Source: a virus
Lineage: Duplodnaviria > Caudoviricetes
Strand: one strand, 5' to 3'
IMG/VR virus record: IMGVR_UViG_3300022876_000113
Coordinates: 1 to 26,476 of that record
DNA: 26,476 nt
The position numbers and the translations under genes were made by a program. Below are positions 2,628 to 24,789 of the stretch, piece by piece. Under the pieces are notes generated by a model. The model did no database searches and was not told the DNA's origin. It saw only the letters and a program-made list of their open reading frames with translations. The stretch's first letter is position 1; every line of letters begins with the position of its first letter.

Positions 2628-2710
2628 GGCGATGATGATGAATGCGGGCGGTCGCAAGGGGCGATACGGAGGCAACGCCACCTGACCACGGTCGCGTCAC
2701 GCGCGACTTG

Positions 2711-2726
2711 TTAGTAATTGTACTAA
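2711..2726. promoter_or_regulatory. LexA (SOS) box, Xanthomonadales type
   Basis: Palindrome TTAGTA-ATTG-TACTAA matches TTAG-N6-TACTA exactly, 50 bp upstream of umuD. Confidence 0.85.
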
Positions 2727-2776
2727 CATGCCCGCCGTCTCCAACGGTGAGACACCCACCGGCCAGAGTTCGCCCC

Positions 2777-3259
2777 ATGCAGTCCATCACCCCACCCCAC
2801 ACCCTCGCCACCTTCATCGGGCCCGCCTCGATCGATGGACCGGCGCATTTCGTGCCCTTGGCCGGCGTGCGCGCTCGGCTTGGATTTCCCTCGCCCGCCG
2901 ATGACTTCATGGACGAGTCGATCGACCTTCACCGGCTGCTGGTCCGCAATCCGTCCGCCACGTTCCTATACCGCGCCGATGGCTGGTCGATGCTGGGCGT
3001 GGGCATCAGCGACGGCGATATCTTGGTGATCGACCGCTCTGTGACGCCGCAGGGCGGCGACCTGGTCATCGCGGTCTGGGATGGCAACCAGCCAACCTGC
3101 AAGGTGCTCAAGACCTTCGAACACCACCTCGAGCTCCACTCGGCCAATCCCGAGTTTCCTCCCATCGTCCTGGACCAAGGGACGGAGGTGGAGGTCTTCG
3201 CGGTGGTGGGCGTGGTGCGCCAGATTCAGCGGAGGCGCGGCCATGTTCGGCCTCGTTGA
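2777..3259 (+). CDS. umuD: UmuD-like S24 autopeptidase (Pol V subunit)
   Basis: GFPSPA, GWSM (catalytic Ser), GDILVIDRS, TCK (catalytic Lys); overlaps umuC start. Confidence 0.9.
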   Translation: MQSITPPHTLATFIGPASIDGPAHFVPLAGVRARLGFPSPADDFMDESIDLHRLLVRNPSATFLYRADGWSMLGVGISDGDILVIDRSVTPQGGDLVIAVWDGNQPTCKVLKTFEHHLELHSANPEFPPIVLDQGTEVEVFAVVGVVRQIQRRRGHVRPR

Positions 3260-4493
3260 CGGCAACAACTTCTACGCCAGCTGCGAACGCGTGTTCCAGC
3301 CGAAGCTGCGCGGCGCCCCCTTGGTGGTGTTGAGCAACAACGATGGCTGCGCCATCGCTCGCTCGGCCGAGGCCAAGGCACTGGGCATCAAGATGGGTCA
3401 GCCGGCCCACGAACTGAAGCACCTGGTGCGGCGGCACGGACTGCAGATGCGATCGGCGAACTTCGGCCTCTACGGCGACATGAGCGCTCGGGTCGTTTCC
3501 ATCTTGAGGGAGGCAGCGCCACGCGTGGAGGTCTACAGCATCGATGAGAGCTTCATCGACCTGACAGGCGTACCCCGACGCGAGGCCTTCGCACAAGAGC
3601 TACGCACCAGGGTGCACCGCTGGACCGGTATACCGAACTGCATCGGCATCGGCCCGACAAAGACGCTGGCCAAGCTCGCCAACAAGGCGGCGAAGACCGG
3701 CACGGGCGTGGTGGATCTCGGCGAACGGGCGGCCCGTGATGCACTGCTGCCCAGGTTTCCAGTCGAAGACCTATGGGGCGTCGGCCGGCGCTTGGCGCCG
3801 AAGTTGGTGGCGATGGGGATCCGCACCGCGGCCGACCTCCGGGATGCGCCAGCGGACGACATCCTCGCCAAGTTCGGGGTGACCTTGGCGCGCACGCAGC
3901 GCGAGCTCCAAGGCCACCCGTGCATGGAACTGGAGGAAGTGGAGCCCGATCGGCAGCAGATCATGGTGAGCCGCTCGTTCGCTGACCGGGTGCACGACCA
4001 CGAGGCCGTGGCCCAGGCACTGGCAACCTTCGCCGTGCGGGCCTGCGAAAAGCTGCGCGCTCGAGGCCTGGTCGCTTCCGGTCTGTGGATCTTCGCTCAC
4101 TCCGACACCTTCCGCCCGGAGTTGCCTCAGCACGCCGCCAACAGGACGATAGCTCTGCCGGCAGCGACCAGCGACACCATGCTGGTGCTGGGGATGGTTC
4201 GCCGCATGCTTCGCGGACTGCTGCAGGAAGGCATTGGGTACAAGAAGGCAGGTGTCGCCCTGCTCGATCTAGCGCGACCCGAGGACGTTCAGCAGGACCT
4301 GTTCGCGCCGGCAGTCGCCGGCGACCAGAGGCTCATGGATACGCTCGATCAGATCAACCGGAAATTCGGCCGCGGCGTGGCCGGGCTGGGCGCTTCGGGC
4401 TGGAAGGACAAGCCCGCATGGGGAATGCGGCAGCACATGCTTTCGGCGAGGTTTACGACCTCGGTACACGAGCTTCCCCGTGTGACTTGCTAA
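3243..4493 (+). CDS. umuC: UmuC-like Y-family DNA polymerase
   Basis: LVDGNNFYASCE, VLSNNDGC, YSIDESF, SRSF and C-terminal WxMRQxxLS motifs; 416 aa. Confidence 0.95.
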   Translation: MFGLVDGNNFYASCERVFQPKLRGAPLVVLSNNDGCAIARSAEAKALGIKMGQPAHELKHLVRRHGLQMRSANFGLYGDMSARVVSILREAAPRVEVYSIDESFIDLTGVPRREAFAQELRTRVHRWTGIPNCIGIGPTKTLAKLANKAAKTGTGVVDLGERAARDALLPRFPVEDLWGVGRRLAPKLVAMGIRTAADLRDAPADDILAKFGVTLARTQRELQGHPCMELEEVEPDRQQIMVSRSFADRVHDHEAVAQALATFAVRACEKLRARGLVASGLWIFAHSDTFRPELPQHAANRTIALPAATSDTMLVLGMVRRMLRGLLQEGIGYKKAGVALLDLARPEDVQQDLFAPAVAGDQRLMDTLDQINRKFGRGVAGLGASGWKDKPAWGMRQHMLSARFTTSVHELPRVTC

Positions 4494-7811: not shown

Positions 7812-10004
7812 CTATGACTGAATTTTGAGGTTGAAGGCGACGCACCAGTTGTGCATCGGATACGGCTTATCGACGAGTGCCGCGATGTTCGCTTCCGGAT
7901 ACTGACCGCTTCCTGCCTGATACACGTATCGATCAGGTGCAACGAAGCTATCGCTATCACGGAGACATCCATTGCCATCGTGGTACGTCTTGTCGGCGTA
8001 GCGGAGGTATGCAACTCCGACCAGGTCACGCGAAAGGGTCAGCTCCACGATCGTGTCGAAAACAATCCGAACGCCACTGACTGGAACGACGCCAATTGAA
8101 TCGCGCACCGTGAAGCCCTTATCGGCGAAATCGGTCGGCGTGTACGACAGATACGGCTTGTCGAACGCAAGCGGCGGCTCTGGCACATGGAAGTCGATGC
8201 TGATCTTCCTGCCCGCCACCGCGACATTGCGAGGAGACAACGGCCTCCAACCTTGACGAAGCTCCAGAACCTTGTAGGCCACTTTTGCAGCCATGTTGGC
8301 CCACCATCGATAGCCATTCGAGTCCAAGTGGCCGTTCGCAGTGGGGCTGGTGTGCTTGTCCGTGTAGGGATACACCGGCCCGACCAGGTAGACGTCGCTG
8401 TTCTCTTCGCTGAATTCAAGCTGGGCTTGGCCAACCGCCAATGCCGTGTCCATCCCATTGCCGTCGGAGGTGAAACTTGCACCGGTCTGGTACATCAGCA
8501 TGACCGGTGGCAGAGGCTGCGCAGCCACACCGGCCGCAACATCTACCTTGAAGTCCGACCAAAGCTGAGCCAGTGCAGCCTTGTGGGCCTGCCTGGTGCT
8601 GCTGGGGTAGTCGTTCTCTCCCTGCAGCCACACAAGCGCCCCGACGCCATAGGTTTTCCCCTCGGATGAGGCATTCGCCTTGGCAGCCTGTGAGTGCCCC
8701 ACCAGGACGTTCCAGATGTTCGGGCTCGCTCCCTTTGTCAGCTGTGCAATCGTTCGCCCACCAACCCCGCTGCTGCTGGCCACGAACGAAATGGAATCAT
8801 CCATCACGCCCTTCCGCAGGTTGTGTAGCTTCTTCAGAGAGTTGACCAGGCCCTCGGCGACCGTCTCGCCAAATGCTCCATTCCCCGGAGGAAGCGCAGC
8901 CACCTCGGCGTCTGTAAGCACGGCCATGCTCGTGCTCATCACATTGGCGACAAGCGGCTGGAACGCGCTGTTGCCGCCCACAGGGGCGAACGACGCTGAC
9001 CCAATGCTGGCCTGCCTGACCGAACCACCCACCATCACGTTGTTGTATGGCTGCGTTTTACTGAGGGCCGGCCACCCCTCAGTGCCATTGCTGAGGCTCT
9101 GGCCATATACGGCAAAGTGCGTGTAGTCGTAGCCTACCGGGGTGGATACGCTGTTTATCTGGGACGCTATACCGCGCGCAGCGTCCAGGTTGGACGCGTT
9201 GCGCGCTCCGTACAGCGATGCATCGTCACTCGCCGAGACCACGCCTTCAGGGGTCACCAGCTCGACGACATACCCATCGTCATCCTGGATCGAGAGCGAG
9301 GTATTCAACCCGACGGAAGAGGCATCCCGGACCAATCCGGCAACACCATTGGGGTCAACTACGTCGACGAAATACCCATCGGCGTCCACGAGGCTGAATG
9401 CACCAGTAGTTCCGATCAGACTTGAATTCGCGAGCATCACCGTCTTGAGGTCGATGATTCCTTCACTCAGCCCCTTGTCCGTGTATCCATCCTCGTCCGC
9501 GAAGCTGATCTCATAAGGAACATCGAGAGCCACCGTTCGAACAGTGTTGTCGAGTTTCGTGTCCAGAGTCTCGACTTCGCTACGGTCAGCCTTATCAAGC
9601 AGGATGTCTCCGCGCAGCCACTCCCATCCTTGTGCCGCAACAGACCTGCGCACGAACCTGCCATAGTTAGGAACGACCTGCCCTCCCGGCTTAATCGGAT
9701 CGACGTGCGAACCAGAGTCGGTTGTCATTGAAATATCGGCCTGTGCGCCGATTGGCTGGCTAATCCCAGGCTCAACCGAGATTAGTCGCGCCCACGTCGA
9801 TTCTCCGATTGCCCCGCCAGCTTGACCCGCCTTAAGCGCTTCCACATCTGCAGGAAGACCGGAAGCGTCGATCTGACCATCCACGAAAACTCCCAGCACA
9901 GACGCCGGCGCCTGCGCGTTGCGCCCGGCCTCAATAACCGCAAGTTGTGTGCTGCTCCCGATCTGACCAATGGCCGGATACTGGCTGAGCTCTTTCTCTG
10001 CCAC
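7812..10004 (-). CDS. Tail spike/fibre-like protein with SGNH (sialate O-acetylesterase-type) domain
   Basis: 730 aa, GTG start with GGAAAGGGG SD; YGQSL, GVGG, WLQGEND and GHL motifs. Confidence 0.75.
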   Translation of the reverse strand: MAEKELSQYPAIGQIGSSTQLAVIEAGRNAQAPASVLGVFVDGQIDASGLPADVEALKAGQAGGAIGESTWARLISVEPGISQPIGAQADISMTTDSGSHVDPIKPGGQVVPNYGRFVRRSVAAQGWEWLRGDILLDKADRSEVETLDTKLDNTVRTVALDVPYEISFADEDGYTDKGLSEGIIDLKTVMLANSSLIGTTGAFSLVDADGYFVDVVDPNGVAGLVRDASSVGLNTSLSIQDDDGYVVELVTPEGVVSASDDASLYGARNASNLDAARGIASQINSVSTPVGYDYTHFAVYGQSLSNGTEGWPALSKTQPYNNVMVGGSVRQASIGSASFAPVGGNSAFQPLVANVMSTSMAVLTDAEVAALPPGNGAFGETVAEGLVNSLKKLHNLRKGVMDDSISFVASSSGVGGRTIAQLTKGASPNIWNVLVGHSQAAKANASSEGKTYGVGALVWLQGENDYPSSTRQAHKAALAQLWSDFKVDVAAGVAAQPLPPVMLMYQTGASFTSDGNGMDTALAVGQAQLEFSEENSDVYLVGPVYPYTDKHTSPTANGHLDSNGYRWWANMAAKVAYKVLELRQGWRPLSPRNVAVAGRKISIDFHVPEPPLAFDKPYLSYTPTDFADKGFTVRDSIGVVPVSGVRIVFDTIVELTLSRDLVGVAYLRYADKTYHDGNGCLRDSDSFVAPDRYVYQAGSGQYPEANIAALVDKPYPMHNWCVAFNLKIQS

Positions 10005-10007
10005 GGT

Positions 10008-10170
10008 TTACCCCTTTCCGATGAGTTGATAGCCGTCATGGCCAAGAAGCAGCGCTCCGTCGTCGCCGACCAGCAGCTGCAGGTAGTTGGTGCTGTCGAA
10101 TTCGAACGGCTCGTCCGTTTCGTAGGTGCGGAACTCCAGGGCCACGCCGGCGGCCGACGGCACCCACTGA
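10008..10170 (-). pseudogene. 3' remnant of a baseplate-region gene (DUF2612-like by position)
   Basis: Start-less frame QWVPSAAGVALEFRTYETDEPFEFDS...LIGKG-stop ending 3 bp before the spike start. Confidence 0.5.
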
Positions 10171-10339
10171 CCGGCACGGCGAAAGCACCGTGCGTGTCGA
10201 TGCCGGCGGCCTTCGCATCGTAGATCGCTTGGGCAATCTCCACGTCCAGCCCGCCTTCGGCGATGACATGAACCGAGTGCGGCGGCCGGCGTGACATATC
10301 CGTGTAGTCGCCGGTGTTCTCGTAGGCAACCACGTTGGT
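10171..10339 (-). pseudogene. Internal fragment of a baseplate J-like gene
   Basis: TNVVAYENTGDYTDMSRRPPHSVHVIAEGGLDVEIAQAIYDAKAAGIDTHG resembles baseplate J/gp47 proteins. Confidence 0.75.
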
Positions 10340-11149
10340 CATGCGGTTGAGGTCGGCGGCAGTGTGCTTCTCAGGCCACAGGGCCTCGCCGTCCTCCGAC
10401 AGCGCCTCGAAGCAGACGTGCTCCCACACCTCACCATTGCCACCCGGTCGCGGTTCTTCGCCGGGCTTGCGGCCCAGGAGCCAGCCGGCCAGGTCCCGCT
10501 CGTGCAGGCGCTGCATGATCACGATGATCGGCGTGTCCGCGCTGTTCACGCGGGACTGCAGCGTGTTGTTGAACCAGTCCAGCACGCCCTGGCGGACCGT
10601 GTCGCTGTCGGCCTCGCCCGGCTTGTGCGGGTCATCGATGATGATCGCGCCGCCGAAGCCGGGCCGAGCCTTGCCCGCGCCGAAGCCGGTCACAGTGCCC
10701 TCGGCACCGGTGGCATAGACCACCCCGCCCTTGGTTGTCCGCCAGTCGCCCTTGGCGCTGCTGTCCTTGCGCAGCTCGACCTCGGGGAAGATCTCCCCGT
10801 AGACCTCGTGCTGCACCAGCTCGCGGGTATTGGCGCTGTTGTTCAGGGCCAGTGGTGCGGCATAGCTGATGTGGATGAACTCGGAGTCGGGCACCTTGCC
10901 CAGGCACCAGGACATCCAGTTCACGACCGCCAGCTCGGTCTTCGAATACCGCGGCGGCAGGTTGATCACCAGGCGCTTGCACTCGCCCCGATAGACCCGG
11001 TCCAAGGCCGCGCACAGAGGGGCATGGTGCTTGGCCCGCATCCACTGGAAGCCCTTCTTCCGCAGGAACGTGTAGCGGCTGTAGAAGTAGAAGTCCTCCC
11101 GCGCCAGCTCGGCCGCAACCAGCTTTTGCTGAGCGGTCAGCTCGCCCAC
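10340..11149 (-). pseudogene. terL: Terminase large subunit, ATPase domain only (nuclease domain deleted)
   Basis: Walker A INLPPRYSKT, Walker B IIIDDP, IMQRLH; similarity stops after LWPEKHTAADLNRM. Confidence 0.9.
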
Positions 11150-13683: not shown

Positions 13684-14319
13684 ATGCTCAAGATTTTCGT
13701 GGACACTTGCGTCTGGAGACACTGGCTTTCGCTGCGGAGCAATAGCTCTCGGTTACAGGAGCCTGAGCTCACCGACGCGGGAGCTTTCGCTGAGATTATC
13801 GCGGCCGTCAATGATCAACGCCTTGCTGCCAACTTGATCTATGACCAGGGCGTAATCATCGAATTGGGTCCGGTCCGGGTTGAAGAGATCTCTGCCTTGC
13901 TCTCACGCCAAGTTGAGAGAGTTCCGATCCCACAGAGCCGATGCGATGGAAGATACCGTTACGACGGAAGCTTGCTGGCGGGAGGAGAATTCGGAGGCTC
14001 CCTTGATGCAATGCTTAACGCGGACGGTCGACGTCATGAGGAACTTCTTCACGCTGCATTCGTCAAGTCGGGAGAGGCTGGCACACCACTCTTTGAGCAA
14101 AAAGCCCGGATAGCAGAGTTCGACGTAGAGCATCTTGAGGCTGCCTTAGAGGCTGGCGCAGACATTTTCATGACCACTGACAGAGCAACCATCCTAGATA
14201 AGCTACCAAAATTGGCCAATCTTCCTACGGCCTCACACGCAGTCAAACGTGCTGCGCAGATTTTGCGCTCGCCTTCGCAGTTCGTCGAAGAAACGGATCT
14301 GACTCGCAGTACAAATTGA
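13684..14319 (+). CDS. PIN-like domain protein (putative RNase), counter-oriented moron
   Basis: N-terminal KIFVDTCVW and C-terminal DVEHLEAALEAGADIFMTTD acidic motifs; lower GC. Confidence 0.7.
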   Translation: MLKIFVDTCVWRHWLSLRSNSSRLQEPELTDAGAFAEIIAAVNDQRLAANLIYDQGVIIELGPVRVEEISALLSRQVERVPIPQSRCDGRYRYDGSLLAGGEFGGSLDAMLNADGRRHEELLHAAFVKSGEAGTPLFEQKARIAEFDVEHLEAALEAGADIFMTTDRATILDKLPKLANLPTASHAVKRAAQILRSPSQFVEETDLTRSTN

Positions 14320-15377: not shown

Positions 15378-15813
15378 ATGCCGATCCTCTCGATCTCGAT
15401 CACGCAACCAGGCACGTCAAGGGCATCTGCGCCCTCCCCCGGGTAACGTTTGGCAGCGCTGCATTCCACGACCCGGGCGTCATCCCGCCAGATCCCGGCG
15501 TCGGTCAGCGCGTCCTCGGTCGATCGGACCAGCTTGGAGAGGTCCGGCAGCTTGCAGGGAAAGACCGTGCGGCGCTTCGGGGCGCTGAGCGGCTTGTGGA
15601 GGGTGAACGTCATGCGGACCACGAGGGGCTCATCAAGCACCGGCAGCCCGAGCTGGGCGCGCAGTTGCTGGGCCGCAAGCTTGACGTCCTGCCGCCATGG
15701 CCGGACCTTCTTCGACGACTCAGCGAGGATGGCCCGGCCGCTCTTGGCCAAGCCCTTGAACGACTTGCTGCCCTGCGGCGCCGGCGAGCCATAGACCAGA
15801 TCCGGATGATCAT
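15374..15813 (-). pseudogene. rusA: RusA Holliday junction resolvase with 5' frameshift
   Basis: PDLSKL..STEDALT.AGIWRDDARV motif; coupled ATG 15813 (MIIRI) is out of frame with VYGSPAPQGSK. Confidence 0.75.
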
Positions 15814-16118
15814 GCGGCCACCTGGATCACGCCCATCTGCCACAGGGCCAGCATGGTGCGCTCGTGCCCGCGCAGCCAGATCTCAGCCTTCTCCTCGCGG
15901 GTGAAGCGCCTTCCCTGGTCCAGCTCGCGATGGCAACTCCGGCAAGCGCTGGCCACGAAGCAGTCGTGCGCCTTAAGGCTGCCGCCCTTCCCGTGCCGGC
16001 TCTGGTTGCTGTGCGCTGGCTCACCGAAGCCACCTTCACAACAGCCGTCGATCTGAAGGGTGCATTCGACCTGGTAAACGGCGTCCAGCAGCGCACGGTC
16101 GCGGTAGTTGTCGTGCAT
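15810..16118 (-). CDS. DUF1364/YbcO-like zinc-binding putative nuclease
   Basis: CTLQIDGCC, AHSN..HGKG..KAHD, ACRSCH..LD. Confidence 0.75.
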   Translation of the reverse strand: MHDNYRDRALLDAVYQVECTLQIDGCCEGGFGEPAHSNQSRHGKGGSLKAHDCFVASACRSCHRELDQGRRFTREEKAEIWLRGHERTMLALWQMGVIQVAA

Positions 16119-16168
16119 CACCACCCCCCCCAGCCTACAATCGCACTACGAACCACAGGGGATTTGAT

Positions 16169-16801
16169 GTGCGACGAATTAATGGTTGGAATGTAGTTTG
16201 GCTGTTGATCGCGGCACTGTGTGCCTTTGCGGCGTCCTTCTGGATCGGTTTTGATCCCATCAATGTAATGGTGGACAAAGAAGCCGGCCAGGTATGGCCT
16301 GCATGGGTACAGGCACTCGGCAGTATTGCAGCGATAGTCGCAGCCGCTTTGATTGCTTATTTGCAAAGACGCTCGGAAAACCTTGAGAAGAAAAACGAAA
16401 GCCTCGCCCGAGAAAGGAGCATGGCTTCTTTTCTTTATAAGGATTTCGCTCGCTGGAGAGAAAAGGCTGCAGATGTAATGGGGCCTGTCGTCATGTTCGG
16501 GGTTGACAACTACGCAATACCGCAAAACATCTACGACCATATGCGTGACTTGCACATCATCGGACCAACAGCGTCGGAAGCCGCGACTAAGGCGATAGGC
16601 GCGTCCTTGGTTGCGCGGACGGTGGGTCGAAGTGGTAATGACGACACGAAGCGCTACCTGAAAGATCAGGATTCCGTCGACCAGTACAACACGCAGCTGA
16701 CAATCATCCGCGAGAGCTGTTCGAAAGTTCTCGATCACTTCGACGAGCTTCTTGGCATCCGTCATCAGCCAAATGATCACGCGGCCTCCGCAAAGTCGTG
16801 A
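16169..16801 (+). CDS. Counter-oriented membrane protein (two N-terminal TMs), moron
   Basis: 210 aa, lower GC; hydrophobic VVWLLIAALCAFAASFWIGF and WPAWVQALGSIAAIVAAALIAYL; TACAAT at 16136-16141. Confidence 0.75.
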   Translation: MRRINGWNVVWLLIAALCAFAASFWIGFDPINVMVDKEAGQVWPAWVQALGSIAAIVAAALIAYLQRRSENLEKKNESLARERSMASFLYKDFARWREKAADVMGPVVMFGVDNYAIPQNIYDHMRDLHIIGPTASEAATKAIGASLVARTVGRSGNDDTKRYLKDQDSVDQYNTQLTIIRESCSKVLDHFDELLGIRHQPNDHAASAKS

Positions 16802-17181
16802 GGATTGAATCCCAGCCCTAGCAGAACCGTGTCCGACCAGCGCACCGGCCGCGCGCGCAAACCCTGCTCTTCCGGGTGGTCGCCGATCTGCACCAGGACT
16901 GTGATGGCATCGCACGCGAGCGACTTCGTCAGCTTCAGGCTGGATCCGCCGAGCATGATGTGACCCGGCGCGCCCTGGCCCCGGTCGATCGCCGGCATCA
17001 GGCGCCATCCCAGCATCGTGCCGGCCACCATGTGGCGCCAGTCGTCCTTGGTCAGGCGCTGGCCGTGCCAGGACAGGCCAGCGGCCAGGTCGCCGCAGAT
17101 GGCGTTGAGCATGCGCTGTTGCTTGGGGGTCATCATCCCCTCGCCGCGCTGTTGCCAGTCTTCGGGGCAGATGCCACTCAA
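16777..17181 (-). CDS. NinB-like recombination protein
   Basis: QQRMLNAICGDLA, WHGQRLTKDDWRHM, MLGGSSLKL. Confidence 0.7.
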   Translation of the reverse strand: MSGICPEDWQQRGEGMMTPKQQRMLNAICGDLAAGLSWHGQRLTKDDWRHMVAGTMLGWRLMPAIDRGQGAPGHIMLGGSSLKLTKSLACDAITVLVQIGDHPEEQGLRARPVRWSDTVLLGLGFNPHDFAEAA

Positions 17182-17749: not shown

Positions 17750-18131
17750 GGCGCACCTCCGGTGTCTCTTCGACGGCGGCGGCCGGCTCGTCCGCGGCGA
17801 CCGCCACGTTGAGCTCGCGCGCGATGTCGTCCATGTGCTTGGCGACCTGCTCGCGCGTCGCCGGCACTGCCTCGCGCACCTGGTGCTCGATCTCGGCCAC
17901 CGGTGCCGCCGGCAGCTCGCCGCCGCGCATCACGAATTCCTTTGCCCGGTTGTAGGCGGCCTGCAGCAGCTTGTCGGCCTTCTCGGCGCTCGCCAGCCGG
18001 TAGCGGTGGCCGTCCAGGTACTGCCACACCAGCCGGGTGAAGCCGTCCTGCTGGCCCGCATCGGCACGCACAGCGTCGAACGGCGGGATGCCCAGGCACA
18101 TCATCCGGAACTGAGGCAGCGTCGGCGGCCA
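17739..18131 (-). pseudogene. 3' remnant of replication protein P-like gene
   Basis: Begins at WPPTLPQFRMMC; sequence upstream belongs to the opposite-strand operon. Confidence 0.7.
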
Positions 18132-21451: not shown

Positions 21452-22387
21452 ATGGCATCTGAAAACTACAAGGCACCTTCCGTTACCCAATCCGCAGAGC
21501 TGGCCGAGCAGCAGGGGGTGAACGGCTGGGATATCGCCGAGAAGGTGCGCGCCGACTTGGATCGGCAGTCATGCCCTGACGCCTACATGCGCATCGCAGT
21601 CGAGTCGGTCGTGAAGCACCTCGCCGCAACTGGCAAGCAGAAGGTAGGCGAGGTGCAGGGGGAGGATGCTGTGGGCGACCAGTTGTTGGATGAGCTGCGA
21701 GACGTTGAGGACTATTTCAACGACGTGGAGCCGAATCCGATTCATCTGGCAACGGTGCAGGCGGCTATCTCCGCCCTCGCCGCAACTGGCAAGCAGCAGG
21801 GTGGCGAGGTGCGGGGGGATGCGCGGGCGCAGTTTGAGGCGTGGGCTTTGAGACGGGGTCTCAGCCTGGTTCGCGATCAGCACTACTCGGGCCGCCAATA
21901 CTACGCTTACAACGATGTTGAACTGGCGTTTGAAGCGTACCAAGCCGCCCTCGCCGCCCGCCAGCCGGGGGCGCAGGTGCCGGTCGAGCTGGCTTGTGTT
22001 GCTGAGACCTTGGCGCACGGCGAAGGGCTGTGGATGACGTGTTCGGGGTGCCACGAAAGCAATGAGGGCGTGCCGACAGGTCCATACAGCCAGATCATGC
22101 AGTGCCACCTCGGCAACGGCTGCGACGAATGCGGCGGGATCGGAGCCACCTGGGATACCACTGACTACCAGCAGATGGCGGATGGAATGTCGAAATCTCT
22201 CGCCGCCCCGCCCGCGCAGGGCATCGACTTGGGGCAGTTCCGCGAGGCGGTTGAGGCGCAGCACGCGGCCCTGATGAGTTCGTGGTGTGGTGACCCTGAG
22301 ACCAAGGACGCAGCAGATCAGCAGCGTGACCGACTGCTGGCCCTGATCGACCAGCGCGATGCAGCGCCGGGGGTGGGCAATGGCTGA
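21452..22387 (+). CDS. Modular hypothetical protein with repeated linkers and a CxxC-CxxC module
   Basis: 311 aa; LAATGKQxxGEVxG twice; CSGC...CDECGG. Confidence 0.75.
   Translation: MASENYKAPSVTQSAELAEQQGVNGWDIAEKVRADLDRQSCPDAYMRIAVESVVKHLAATGKQKVGEVQGEDAVGDQLLDELRDVEDYFNDVEPNPIHLATVQAAISALAATGKQQGGEVRGDARAQFEAWALRRGLSLVRDQHYSGRQYYAYNDVELAFEAYQAALAARQPGAQVPVELACVAETLAHGEGLWMTCSGCHESNEGVPTGPYSQIMQCHLGNGCDECGGIGATWDTTDYQQMADGMSKSLAAPPAQGIDLGQFREAVEAQHAALMSSWCGDPETKDAADQQRDRLLALIDQRDAAPGVGNG
21619..21817 (+). repeat. Imperfect ~43-bp direct repeat (21619 and 21775) with 22-bp exact core
   Basis: CCTCGCCGCAACTGGCAAGCAG at 21619-21640 and 21775-21796. Confidence 0.9.
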
Positions 22388-22397
22388 CCGCTGCTGG

Positions 22398-22691
22398 TCA
22401 ACCGATCGGACGGCCCCAAATGGACTTGACGCCAACGGGCGCATGTCGAGGCGCATCGCTTCCAGCAAGCGTCTTTGCAGTCTCAAGAGCCTCGGCCAGA
22501 GCCGCAGCTTCATCTATGAATTCGAAGCCTGTGTATCCCGCGTTGTCCTCGTCGTCTCCCCGCGTGACCTTGACGTTTTCAATGGTCGCACCGTCCGGCC
22601 AAATATTGAGATCGATGACGTACTCGGCATCCAGCACTTTTCCGGTGTGACTAACAAAATTGCTACCCGCGTTGCTGTCCAGATTCTTCAT
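22398..22691 (-). CDS. Counter-oriented small acidic protein, moron (alternative start 22781)
   Basis: Lower GC insert; minus-strand TTGGCT-17 bp-TAATTT at 22758-22730 favours ATG 22691 (97 aa). Confidence 0.6.
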   Translation of the reverse strand: MKNLDSNAGSNFVSHTGKVLDAEYVIDLNIWPDGATIENVKVTRGDDEDNAGYTGFEFIDEAAALAEALETAKTLAGSDAPRHAPVGVKSIWGRPIG

Positions 22692-22779
22692 TTCGCTGAT
22701 CTCGTTGAGATGGATTCCCTTGTGGAACCAAATTACCTCAGCTGCAAGGCGAAGCCAAATCAATTGCAAGGGACTATCC

Positions 22780-24789
22780 ATGGCTGACGGCTCCCGCTCC
22801 TTCAACTTCCCCCTGCCGCAGCGCTCGCGCCTGCGCGCCGGTGAGATCGTGGTCGATCTGTTCGCCGGCGGCGGCGGCGCCAGCGAGGCGCTGAAGCAGG
22901 CGCTGGGCCAAGACCCGGCGCTCGCCTACAACCACGACGCGCTGGCGATCGGCATGCACGCGGCGAACCACCCGCTCACCAGCCACCACCGCGAGGACAT
23001 CTGGCATGCCGATCCGCGTGTGGACGTGGCCGGCCGCGCGATCGGATGGTTCCATGCCTCGCCGGACTGCACGCACTTCAGCCAGGCCAAGGGCGGCCAG
23101 CCGCGCAGCCGGAAGACACGTGCTCTGTCGTGGGTGGTCCTGAAGTGGATCGGCATGCTGCTGCGCGCCGACTTGGTCAACGGCACCAATACGGCCCCAC
23201 GCATCTTCTCGATGGAGAACGTGTGGCAGATCCTGACCTGGGGCCCGCTGATCGCCAAGCGCTGCAAGACCACCGGTCGCGTCCTGAAGATGGACGGCAC
23301 CGTCGCAGCGCGCGGCGAGCGCGTGCCGGTCGAGCATCAGCAACTGGTGCCGGACAAGAGCCGCACCGGCCGCACTTGGCGGCAGTTCGTCGCCTCGCTG
23401 CGTGCGCTGGGCTACGTGGTCGAGTGGAGAAAGCTGGTGGCGAGCGACTACGGCGCCGGCACCAGCCGGGAACGCTTGTTCCTGCTCGGCCGCCGCGACG
23501 GCGAGCCGATCGTGTGGCCGGCGGCAAGCCACGGCACCGCGCCGGGCCAGAAGCCGCGCGTATCCGCCGCCGACTGTCTGGACTTCAGCATCCCTTGCCC
23601 GTCCATCTTCGGGCGCAAGCGGCCGCTGGCCGACGCCACCATGCGCCGCATCGCCAAGGGCACCAGGCGCCACGTCATCGACTCTGCGGACCCGTTCATT
23701 GTGCCGGTGACCAACCAGGGTGCCGACCGCGTCCATGGCGTGCACGAGCCACTGCGCACAATCACCGCTGCCCATCGCGGCGAGCTGATGCTGGCCATGC
23801 CCGAGCTTGCCCCGTTCATTGCCGAGCACGCGAACAGCAGCCATTCGCTGGGCAGCATGCGAGCCGACGAGCCACTGCGTACCGTCTGCGCCGGGGTGAA
23901 GGGCGGCCACTTCTCGGTCGTCACGCCGATCCTTGCTGGCGTCGGCGGCCGCGCCGGCCAGTCGGAACCACGCTCGGGCGCTGACCCTCTGTACACGATG
24001 ACCGCGAAGGCGGACACCGCGCTGGTGGCGCCGCACCTGGTCAAGTTCCGGGGCGACAGCATCGGAACACCTGCCACCGAACCTGTGCCGACGATCACCT
24101 CAGGTGCTGGTGCTGCGCGTCCGGCAGGCGCAGCGCACGCCTTGGGCGTAGCTGCCGCCTCGCTGGTCACACTGCGGAGGAACATGGTCGGCGCCGATGC
24201 TCGCACGCCGCTGGCTACGGTAGCCGCTCAGGCAGAACACCATGCGCTGTCAACGGCCTTCATGGTGCAAGCCGCACACGGCGAAGGACGCCCGGGAGGT
24301 GTCCAGCGCTGGGGCTCTGGCAGCAAGGATGCACGCGATCCGGTGGGCACGATCACCGCCAGCGGAAACGGGGGCCATGCCGTCGCCGAGGCAGAGCTGG
24401 CTGAGCTTTCGCCCGAGCACCAGGAAGGCGCGCTGCGGGTCGCCGCCTTCCTGATCAAGTACTACGGCACCGGCTCCAACGTGCCCAGCCTGGCCGACCC
24501 CGCCGACACCATCACCACGAAAGACCGGCTGGCGCTGGTCACGGTGGTGATCAAGGGCACGCCTTACGTCATCGTGGATATCGGCCTTCGCATGCTGAAG
24601 CCGCACGAGCTCTACCGCGCGCAGGGCTTCCCGGCGGGCTACATCATCGATCGCACGGCCAACGGCACCCCGCTGACTACCAGCGCGGCCGTGCGCATGG
24701 TTGGCAACAGCGTCAGCCCGCCGCCGCTGCGCGCCTTGGCCGAGGCCAACCTGGACCCGGTGGCGATGCAGCTGGCGGAGGCCGCCTGA
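22780..24789 (+). CDS. Orphan C5 cytosine DNA methyltransferase (669 aa)
   Basis: DLFAGGGG (I), ASPDC (IV), MENV (VI), RERLF (VIII), RML..ELYRAQGFP (IX), GNSV (X). Confidence 0.93.
   Translation: MADGSRSFNFPLPQRSRLRAGEIVVDLFAGGGGASEALKQALGQDPALAYNHDALAIGMHAANHPLTSHHREDIWHADPRVDVAGRAIGWFHASPDCTHFSQAKGGQPRSRKTRALSWVVLKWIGMLLRADLVNGTNTAPRIFSMENVWQILTWGPLIAKRCKTTGRVLKMDGTVAARGERVPVEHQQLVPDKSRTGRTWRQFVASLRALGYVVEWRKLVASDYGAGTSRERLFLLGRRDGEPIVWPAASHGTAPGQKPRVSAADCLDFSIPCPSIFGRKRPLADATMRRIAKGTRRHVIDSADPFIVPVTNQGADRVHGVHEPLRTITAAHRGELMLAMPELAPFIAEHANSSHSLGSMRADEPLRTVCAGVKGGHFSVVTPILAGVGGRAGQSEPRSGADPLYTMTAKADTALVAPHLVKFRGDSIGTPATEPVPTITSGAGAARPAGAAHALGVAAASLVTLRRNMVGADARTPLATVAAQAEHHALSTAFMVQAAHGEGRPGGVQRWGSGSKDARDPVGTITASGNGGHAVAEAELAELSPEHQEGALRVAAFLIKYYGTGSNVPSLADPADTITTKDRLALVTVVIKGTPYVIVDIGLRMLKPHELYRAQGFPAGYIIDRTANGTPLTTSAAVRMVGNSVSPPPLRALAEANLDPVAMQLAEAA

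Follow-up and report, generated by a model that had tools for sequence, protein, structure and literature searches.

In the window analysed here, a stretch of 26,476 nt of viral DNA, an accessory gene (moron) is inserted in antisense orientation into a lambdoid-type operon, and the operon strand opposite to it carries a long open reading frame, called here the bridge, that is coupled to the flanking operon genes at both ends. Comparison with the sequences found at the same junction in related loci has confirmed operon-strand openness as a real, selected feature of this lineage. With moderate confidence, we propose that the bridge would act as a translated spacer that keeps ribosomes on the lytic message and not as a source of useful protein.

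The bridge ORF and the antisense gene in the window

The coordinates of the bridge, the antisense gene and their neighbours are listed in Table 1, together with a second locus of the same kind.

Table 1. Features of the two bridged loci of the window.
Feature	Position	Strand	Characteristics
Bridge ORF	16118..16780	-	220 codons; GTGA start, TGATG end; codon-aligned with the antisense gene
Antisense accessory gene (moron)	16169..16801	+	210 aa; GTG start; two N-terminal hydrophobic stretches
ninB-like gene, upstream in operon	16777..17181	-	Pfam PF05772, E 8e-7, above cut-off; phrog_72
GGAGG, Shine-Dalgarno-like	16785..16789	-	4 nt ahead of GTG 16780
ybcO/HNH-like gene, downstream in operon	15810..16118	-	Pfam PF07102, E 1e-6, just under cut-off; phrog_131, E 3e-27
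TACAAT, candidate -10 box of the moron promoter	16136..16141	+	Predicted; 15 nt from the CATCA (TGATG) junction
CAGGGGA, SD-like	16156..16162	+	6 nt ahead of the moron GTG; common to related inserts
Second bridge ORF	22380..22787	+	135 codons; other early operon (recT/rdgC/methylase); ATGGCTGA overlaps at both ends
Second antisense gene	22398..22781	-	127 aa; GC3 0.59; no TTA/CTA/TCA

The original prediction of a plus-strand membrane-protein gene that interrupts a minus-strand nin operon agrees with hydropathy and with the Pfam and PHROG assignments of the neighbours, since NinB, YbcO/HNH, RusA, a Q-like antiterminator and lysis genes make up a lambdoid nin region. The antisense gene is nested between co-directional operon genes, the arrangement of noncontiguous operons. 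The predicted bridge, with its length, its junctions, its GGAGG Shine-Dalgarno (SD) sequence and its codon alignment with the sense gene, was also found in the sequence. Its GTG overlaps the ninB stop TGA (16779-16777), the final codons of ninB (EAA and stop) providing both the SD and the NTGA start, and the last base of its own stop TGA (16120-16118) is at the same time the A of the ybcO-like ATG. The 3'-most 25 nt of the moron overlap the 3' end of ninB. No Pfam or PHROG match was obtained for the bridge ORF, and no convincing terminator was found on the operon strand (one weak match against 1.5 expected).

The presence of homologs at 47-69% identity, together with the hydrophobic N-terminal stretches, indicates that the plus-strand gene is a real gene. 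The named homologs and the loci are from Stenotrophomonas. Alignments have revealed that the moron belongs to a divergent family with a W-x-A-W-x-Q-A-x-G-S motif, in which 15 of 106 members match phrog_33632 (unknown function) and none of the 106 matches the PADLOC defence models at E 1e-4. The moron itself gave no Pfam match above cut-off and no match among annotated phages; the PDB returned generic helical proteins only (best E 0.0014) and the Atlas unnamed clusters, with structure matches by query below TM 0.5. Among 400 genomes searched within the class, five matches were obtained, most of them weak, and phage SOVA965 has ninB with no antisense insert after it. Its position and membrane anchor allow no more than a guess that the moron takes part in superinfection exclusion or defence.

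A head of about 50 nt, composed of CATCA, 15 nt, TACAAT, about 15 nt, CAGGGGA and the start codon, was observed in the window and in related inserts. It is a candidate for the moron promoter and faces away from the adjacent ybcO start; TACAAT is present in 5 of 10 aligned inserts, and a scan with the promoter consensus detected none.

In the codon-aligned reverse frame the operon strand is closed by TTA, CTA and TCA codons of the sense gene (blocking codons). The moron has none among its 16 Leu and 14 Ser codons, where 3.55 were expected (P(0)=0.022). Full-length shadows were also found in five ordinary GC-rich genes of the window (ybcO, rusA, recT, integrase and DUF2280), and the open frame of the window alone was rejected as proof for both reasons. 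The caution, already expressed in the original prediction, that openness by itself is weak evidence held for the window, but across relatives openness became the strongest signal, as described below. The same prediction contrasted the bridge with a 'PIN' and a KilA-N moron lacking a full shadow, and these comparison genes do carry blocking codons, six in 13684-14319 and four in KilA-N. The name 'PIN' comes from that prediction; 13684-14319 has no Pfam match, nor a PHROG one, and is an antisense gene between Q and the lysis genes, with a GC3 of 0.55 and without a bridge.

Inserts at the ninB-ybcO junction of related loci

Four scans (37, 80, 14 and 80 loci), restricted to ybcO loci with ninB within 3 kb, produced 43 distinct ninB-ybcO intervals longer than 100 nt. 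After removal of three without a long antisense gene (L028, L152, L167) and three near-duplicates (L002, L135, L143), the sample consisted of 37 non-redundant inserts, window included. All of them contain an antisense gene of 186-244 aa, with nearest-neighbour identities mostly of 25-60%. One loose membrane-anchored family comprises 34 inserts, and L008, L012 and L013 form a separate group, the two members scanned being DUF4145 proteins.

As had been anticipated, different inserts at this locus keep the bridge open and coupled. In 29 of the 37 inserts one ORF, coupled at both ends, spans the whole distance between the ninB stop and the ybcO start; it ends at position +1 of the ybcO start in 26 of them and at +11 in three. 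Three more show two-step relays, in which the bridge is accompanied by a 63-codon ORF (L008 and L013) or a 23-codon ORF (L004). The bridge is broken in four inserts, by one stop each in L012, L130 and L145 and by four in L163, and these may still be viable. The remaining insert, L036, is unclear, with an open frame and no start nearby. The 63-codon operon-strand ORF lies over the leader of the DUF4145 inserts (L008:4009-4197, L013:4006-4194, and the same place in L012), its ATG being at or beside the antisense start, with a CATG shared by L012 and L013. This apparently conserved ORF could be a small gene in its own right. In L002 (3348-4316) a G-run is 2 nt shorter and the bridge is fused in frame with ybcO (322 codons), which is either a natural variant or a homopolymer sequencing error.

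Bridge starts are located at -4 or -1 in 30 of the 37 inserts. In each of the six inserts with a shifted register, namely L120 and a clade of five, the bridge starts between -11 and -17, and the two inserts with a TAA ninB stop read TAATG. These six and the two in which TAA is followed by TG are signs of selection on the start. The mean anti-SD duplex energy was -7.8 kcal/mol at bridge starts (n=36) versus -1.9 at 293 internal NTG. However, GGAGG-4 nt-ATGA also joins ninB to ybcO in L154 and L172, two more distant phages that lack an insert, and because the same SD-NTGA end of ninB occurs with or without an insert, the start coupling is mostly inherited from the empty junction. The stop junction is placed within the head of roughly 50 nt common to many inserts, and several different heads end in the same TGATG. 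The sharing of the head, with TACAAT at 15 nt, suggests that the moron promoter may also hold the stop junction in place. Coupling, which the original prediction took as the signal itself, is present at both ends, but its weight is reduced by an inherited start and a shared stop.

Depletion of blocking codons

In the 37 inserts only 8 TTA, CTA or TCA codons were found versus about 160 expected, far from what codon usage would give to a neutral shadow, and 32 insert genes had no blocking codon, against an expected 0.4. When the analysis was limited to 32 inserts less than 50% identical to each other, the figures were 7 and 139. Expected values were calculated from the Leu and Ser codon shares of 287 non-family genes of GC3 0.5-0.7 from the same loci, which were called with a simple gene caller, so that some may be miscalled. 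Another null, derived from the frequency of A-ending codons (263 expected), overstates the effect and was replaced by these shares. In the count set against these controls, the inserts contain CTA at 3 of 655 (422 of 3841 in controls) and TCA at 4 of 278 (469 of 2187 in controls). A count over 7692 codons gave 2 CTA among 650 CTN, 5 TCA among 285 TCN and one TTA versus 115 TTG, while A-ending codons for Val, Ala, Pro, Thr, Gly and Arg, at 17-25%, are not depleted. The depletion is about 20-fold beyond matched controls, in genes that are GC3-poor for their genomes. A reverse frame in codon register from which TTA, CTA and TCA have specifically been lost marks ambigrammatic genes, and the inserts show it.

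Outside the moron coding sequence (1947 nt from 33 inserts) there were no stops in the bridge frame, versus 36 and 17 in the other two frames. Avoidance of rare tRNAs was rejected as a cause, since the depletion continues beyond the coding sequence. Third positions are near saturation between family members, which implies that openness has been maintained and not merely inherited. A quick tree, with 46 of its 98 inner branches open, suggests a scattered distribution of the broken members, with 7 changes for the 10 rows, only 2 of them forced by well-supported branches.

Antisense genes at other junctions

A profile scan identified 80 loci of the moron family, 78 of them usable and five repeating ninB-ybcO inserts. 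At the usable loci 66 genes had at most one blocking codon, three had two and nine had 5-14; upstream neighbours include two NinB families, HD phosphatase, DHH phosphoesterase, RdgC and RecT. In 109 non-redundant family genes, at most one blocking codon was present in 81 of the 86 with a coupled start versus 12 of the 23 without (p 8e-6). This difference bears out the expectation that uncoupled family members are often rich in stops, and the 12 genes that are open without a called coupled start count against the bridge reading. A tally of junction types was left unused because it was too loose, 35 of 87 controls being scored as NTGA. Tandem pairs of family genes were observed in L218, L227, L269 and L270, with one open frame through both genes in L218 and L270 and both broken in L269.

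Bridging extends to antisense genes outside the family. Two of the unrelated DUF4145 inserts are bridged by means of the additional 63-codon ORF, and the second antisense gene of the window (Table 1), in which the DUF6894 match was weak and below cut-off, was not recognized as belonging to the moron family. At the methylase junction, 14 of 17 antisense genes lack blocking codons, with 7 seen versus 67 expected; this count takes in genes of at least 125 codons only, because many short gene calls were doubtful, and L364 (at least 5 stops) fell outside it by the score filter. Eight loci (L302, L304, L322, L358, L362, L367, L368 and L371) have antisense membrane-anchor genes upstream of methylase, with an N-terminus of the type C..LG..C.V.WDAW.A and nearly all stop-free on the operon strand, and these genes are probably distant kin of the moron family.

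Convergent genes in general do not follow this pattern: those outside the family have a mean of 2.1 blocking codons per 100, and among the ten with a start at -4 or -1 six have at most one and four at least three. The sieB gene of lambda, which lies in an N-antiterminated operon, has 9 blocking codons in 185, a contrast in favour of the bridge reading that concerns a single low-GC3 gene.

Proposed function of the bridge

According to the mechanism that we propose, the accessory gene would have landed just behind an SD-ATGA junction, and ribosomes finishing ninB would restart into the insert. Silent changes of TTA, CTA and TCA are always able to clear the reverse frame only in the codon-aligned register, a rule described for narnaviruses (PMC8155312), and inserts in that register would have been retained and then cleared. 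By covering the 660 nt, ribosomes would keep Rho off the nascent RNA, and ybcO, rusA and the Q-like antiterminator gene downstream would thereby still be transcribed. Shielding of this kind, Rho polarity on untranslated RNA and the suppression of antisense transcription by Rho are established (PMC12360218). The TGATG end would leave no naked RNA and would not block the next start, and the moron would be expressed in the lysogen from its own promoter. The operon strand of the inserts has a C-over-G skew of +0.013, compared with -0.06 in the flanking sequence, and the value is positive for 23 of the 37 inserts; since this skew is slight it gives the Rho reading thin direct support.

The chances appear even that a general rule applies, by which accessory genes lying backwards in coupled early operons would need their reverse strand rewritten as a translated, peptide-indifferent ORF, ribosome traffic serving as a cis antiterminator in phages without an N-type system. 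If so, the insertion register is selected and the accessory gene is purged of three codons, and many operon genes now annotated as 'hypothetical' would be fillers that hide a real gene on the opposite strand.

It is unlikely that the bridge is a pure translational relay, feeding the next start by termination-reinitiation with no part in transcription termination, although the precision of the far end (26 of 37 stops exactly at +1 of the ybcO start, three at +11) would suit such a relay, as would the finding at other sites that a coding-like ORF begins at the bridge stop in 46 of 66 open genes versus 1 of 9 broken ones. Against this, the SD-like signal of ybcO itself is strong (mean -8.0 kcal/mol), so that fresh initiation looks possible, and 200 open codons would be a costly means of feeding one start.

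Slightly less likely again is RNA protection, in which translation would shield the lytic transcript from RNase E or from moron-mRNA pairing and RNase III, or would help the lytic polymerase to beat the moron promoter at induction. The data at hand do not separate this possibility from polarity, and exact coupling at the far end is not required by it. Its precedents, in the available portions of both reports, are the noncontiguous operons with interfering opposed transcripts, whose layout is matched here (PMC11087260), and the ribosome shielding proposed for narnavirus reverse ORFs (PMC8316113).

That the bridge encodes a functional protein, for instance another exclusion protein or one that inhibits the moron product in lytic growth only, is improbable in view of how its peptide evolves. 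At moron identities of 63% and 50% identity between the bridge peptides is 34% and 28%, less than in control shadows (47% and 34% for gene identities of 74% and 56%), and 4-fold sites are near saturation (0.68-0.71) at both moron identities. Changes of Gln codons, which are double-synonymous, were no more frequent than those of Glu and Lys codons (29/161 versus 69/280, p 0.12; 22 pairs, small numbers), and in the 40-60% bin the difference opposes a functional peptide (p 0.03); within these small numbers the reverse peptide behaves as free of protein-level selection. Between the window and L002 there are 15 base changes, 12 of them at third positions, that alter 5 moron and 12 bridge residues. 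Seven bridges scanned against Pfam gave no family, unrelated morons are bridged too, and neither conservation of the bridge peptide nor purifying selection on it was detected. In favour of a protein, Ith versus Tha (PMC11087260) and gene 10 of phage Fc02 opposite olg1 (PMC9936078) are precedents, as described in the available text of these reports, and in the 9 closest pairs the 4-fold sites differ by 0.09 versus 0.30 in controls of similar protein identity. This low divergence could reflect an extra constraint; faster protein evolution or closer pairs also fit. Since the bridge peptide is not conserved, openness and not the protein appears to be selected, and the idea in the original prediction that the bridge may seed new overlapping genes found no support, as the peptides show no protein-level constraint.

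A neutral by-product of GC-rich codon bias, avoidance of rare Leu and Ser codons and an inherited junction is the least probable explanation. In its favour, blocking codons are absent from 204 of 560 genes with a GC3 above 0.72, the inserts have an ancestral start junction and share the 3' head and, most inserts being one family, the register can be inherited. However, the insert genes are near GC3 0.6, where controls have 1.93 blocking codons per 100 and only 39 of 378 genes have none, only the three anti-stop codons are depleted, also outside the coding sequence, third positions are saturated between family members, and in L032 two TCA-class codons are found only in the ninB overlap, ahead of the bridge start.

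Relation to known systems

An atlas of noncontiguous operons reportedly exists. Long antisense ORFs over annotated genes are said to occur as shadow ORFs of GC-rich genomes and as olg1/olg2 of P. aeruginosa; in comparison with these, the genes studied here are GC3-poor, with a depletion of about 20-fold and no purifying selection on the peptide. Overlapping stop-start junctions (NTGA/TGATG) hand ribosomes on, but the known cases of coupling concern real genes or short leader peptides, whereas a 200-codon filler ORF on the reverse side of a different gene, as here, is not described in the literature covered.

The nearest phage case is gene 10/olg1 of Pseudomonas phage Fc02 (PMC9936078). Its available text describes, as here, a lytic-operon ORF over lysogeny-expressed antisense ORFs (olg1-olg2), with exclusion-active proteins encoded by both strands and a functional homolog of gene 10 in phage Ps56. 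Unlike Fc02, the operon-strand peptide is here unconserved, and many different inserts swap at one site. The noncontiguous operon tha/ith of the S. aureus prophage 80alpha (PMC11087260) likewise has an antisense gene inside a phage operon, there with its own promoter and here with a candidate one, and alternating expression in lysogeny and lysis is expected in both systems. In 80alpha, by contrast, the antisense gene encodes an inhibitor protein; a stop-free, doubly coupled ORF on the operon strand is not mentioned in the available part of that report, in which the terms 'Rho' and 'polar' are absent.

Ambigrammatic narnaviruses resemble the bridge in their codon-aligned reverse ORF, kept open by avoidance of UUA, CUA and UCA (PMC8155312), and in a reverse peptide without protein-level selection, translation itself being proposed to matter (PMC8316113). 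They are eukaryotic RNA viruses with a whole-segment ORF, no operon, no stop-start coupling and no Rho. The open frame described here lies in no RdRp segment and is local to a gene inserted into a dsDNA lambdoid-type prophage, so the resemblance is a likeness only and not membership. The accessible part of a review of antisense proteins (PMC7457138) mentions neither Rho nor polarity, and the literature covered, which takes in few subscription papers, contains no account of coupled filler ORFs that span an antisense gene of a phage. The stop-free, doubly coupled bridge is built from known parts, and their combination appears to be undescribed.

If correct, the translated-spacer reading would explain how cargo expressed in lysogeny can reside inside lytic operons without silencing downstream genes, including a Q-like late activator, and it would provide a bacterial, easily testable ORF selected for being translated and not for its product. 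The absence of TTA, CTA and TCA from a GC-poor gene, with NTGA and TGATG on the opposite strand, is a signature for finding morons, which gene callers may put on the wrong strand. The same principle would offer a design rule for antisense cargo in engineered operons.

State of the prophage in the window

Comparison with L042 revealed the loss, near 18,125 (about 18119-18131), of about 5.3 kb in which the repressor, cro and replication genes are predicted; the two early operons of the window now abut there. Similarity to all four relatives compared stops near 10,340, inside the terminase gene, which matches its family over the first ~260 residues only; there, a second large deletion has probably removed the head and tail genes. 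Judging from these losses, the window copy lies in a defective prophage and, with the repressor/replication region lost, its bridge may not be expressed now. Terminase-like and tail-fibre-like genes adjoin at 9782-11149 and 7812-10004. At the prophage end, SRAP-family, peptidase S24 (UmuD-like) and UmuC-like genes (301-1716, 2642-3259 and 3081-4493, respectively) constitute an SOS mutagenesis cluster.
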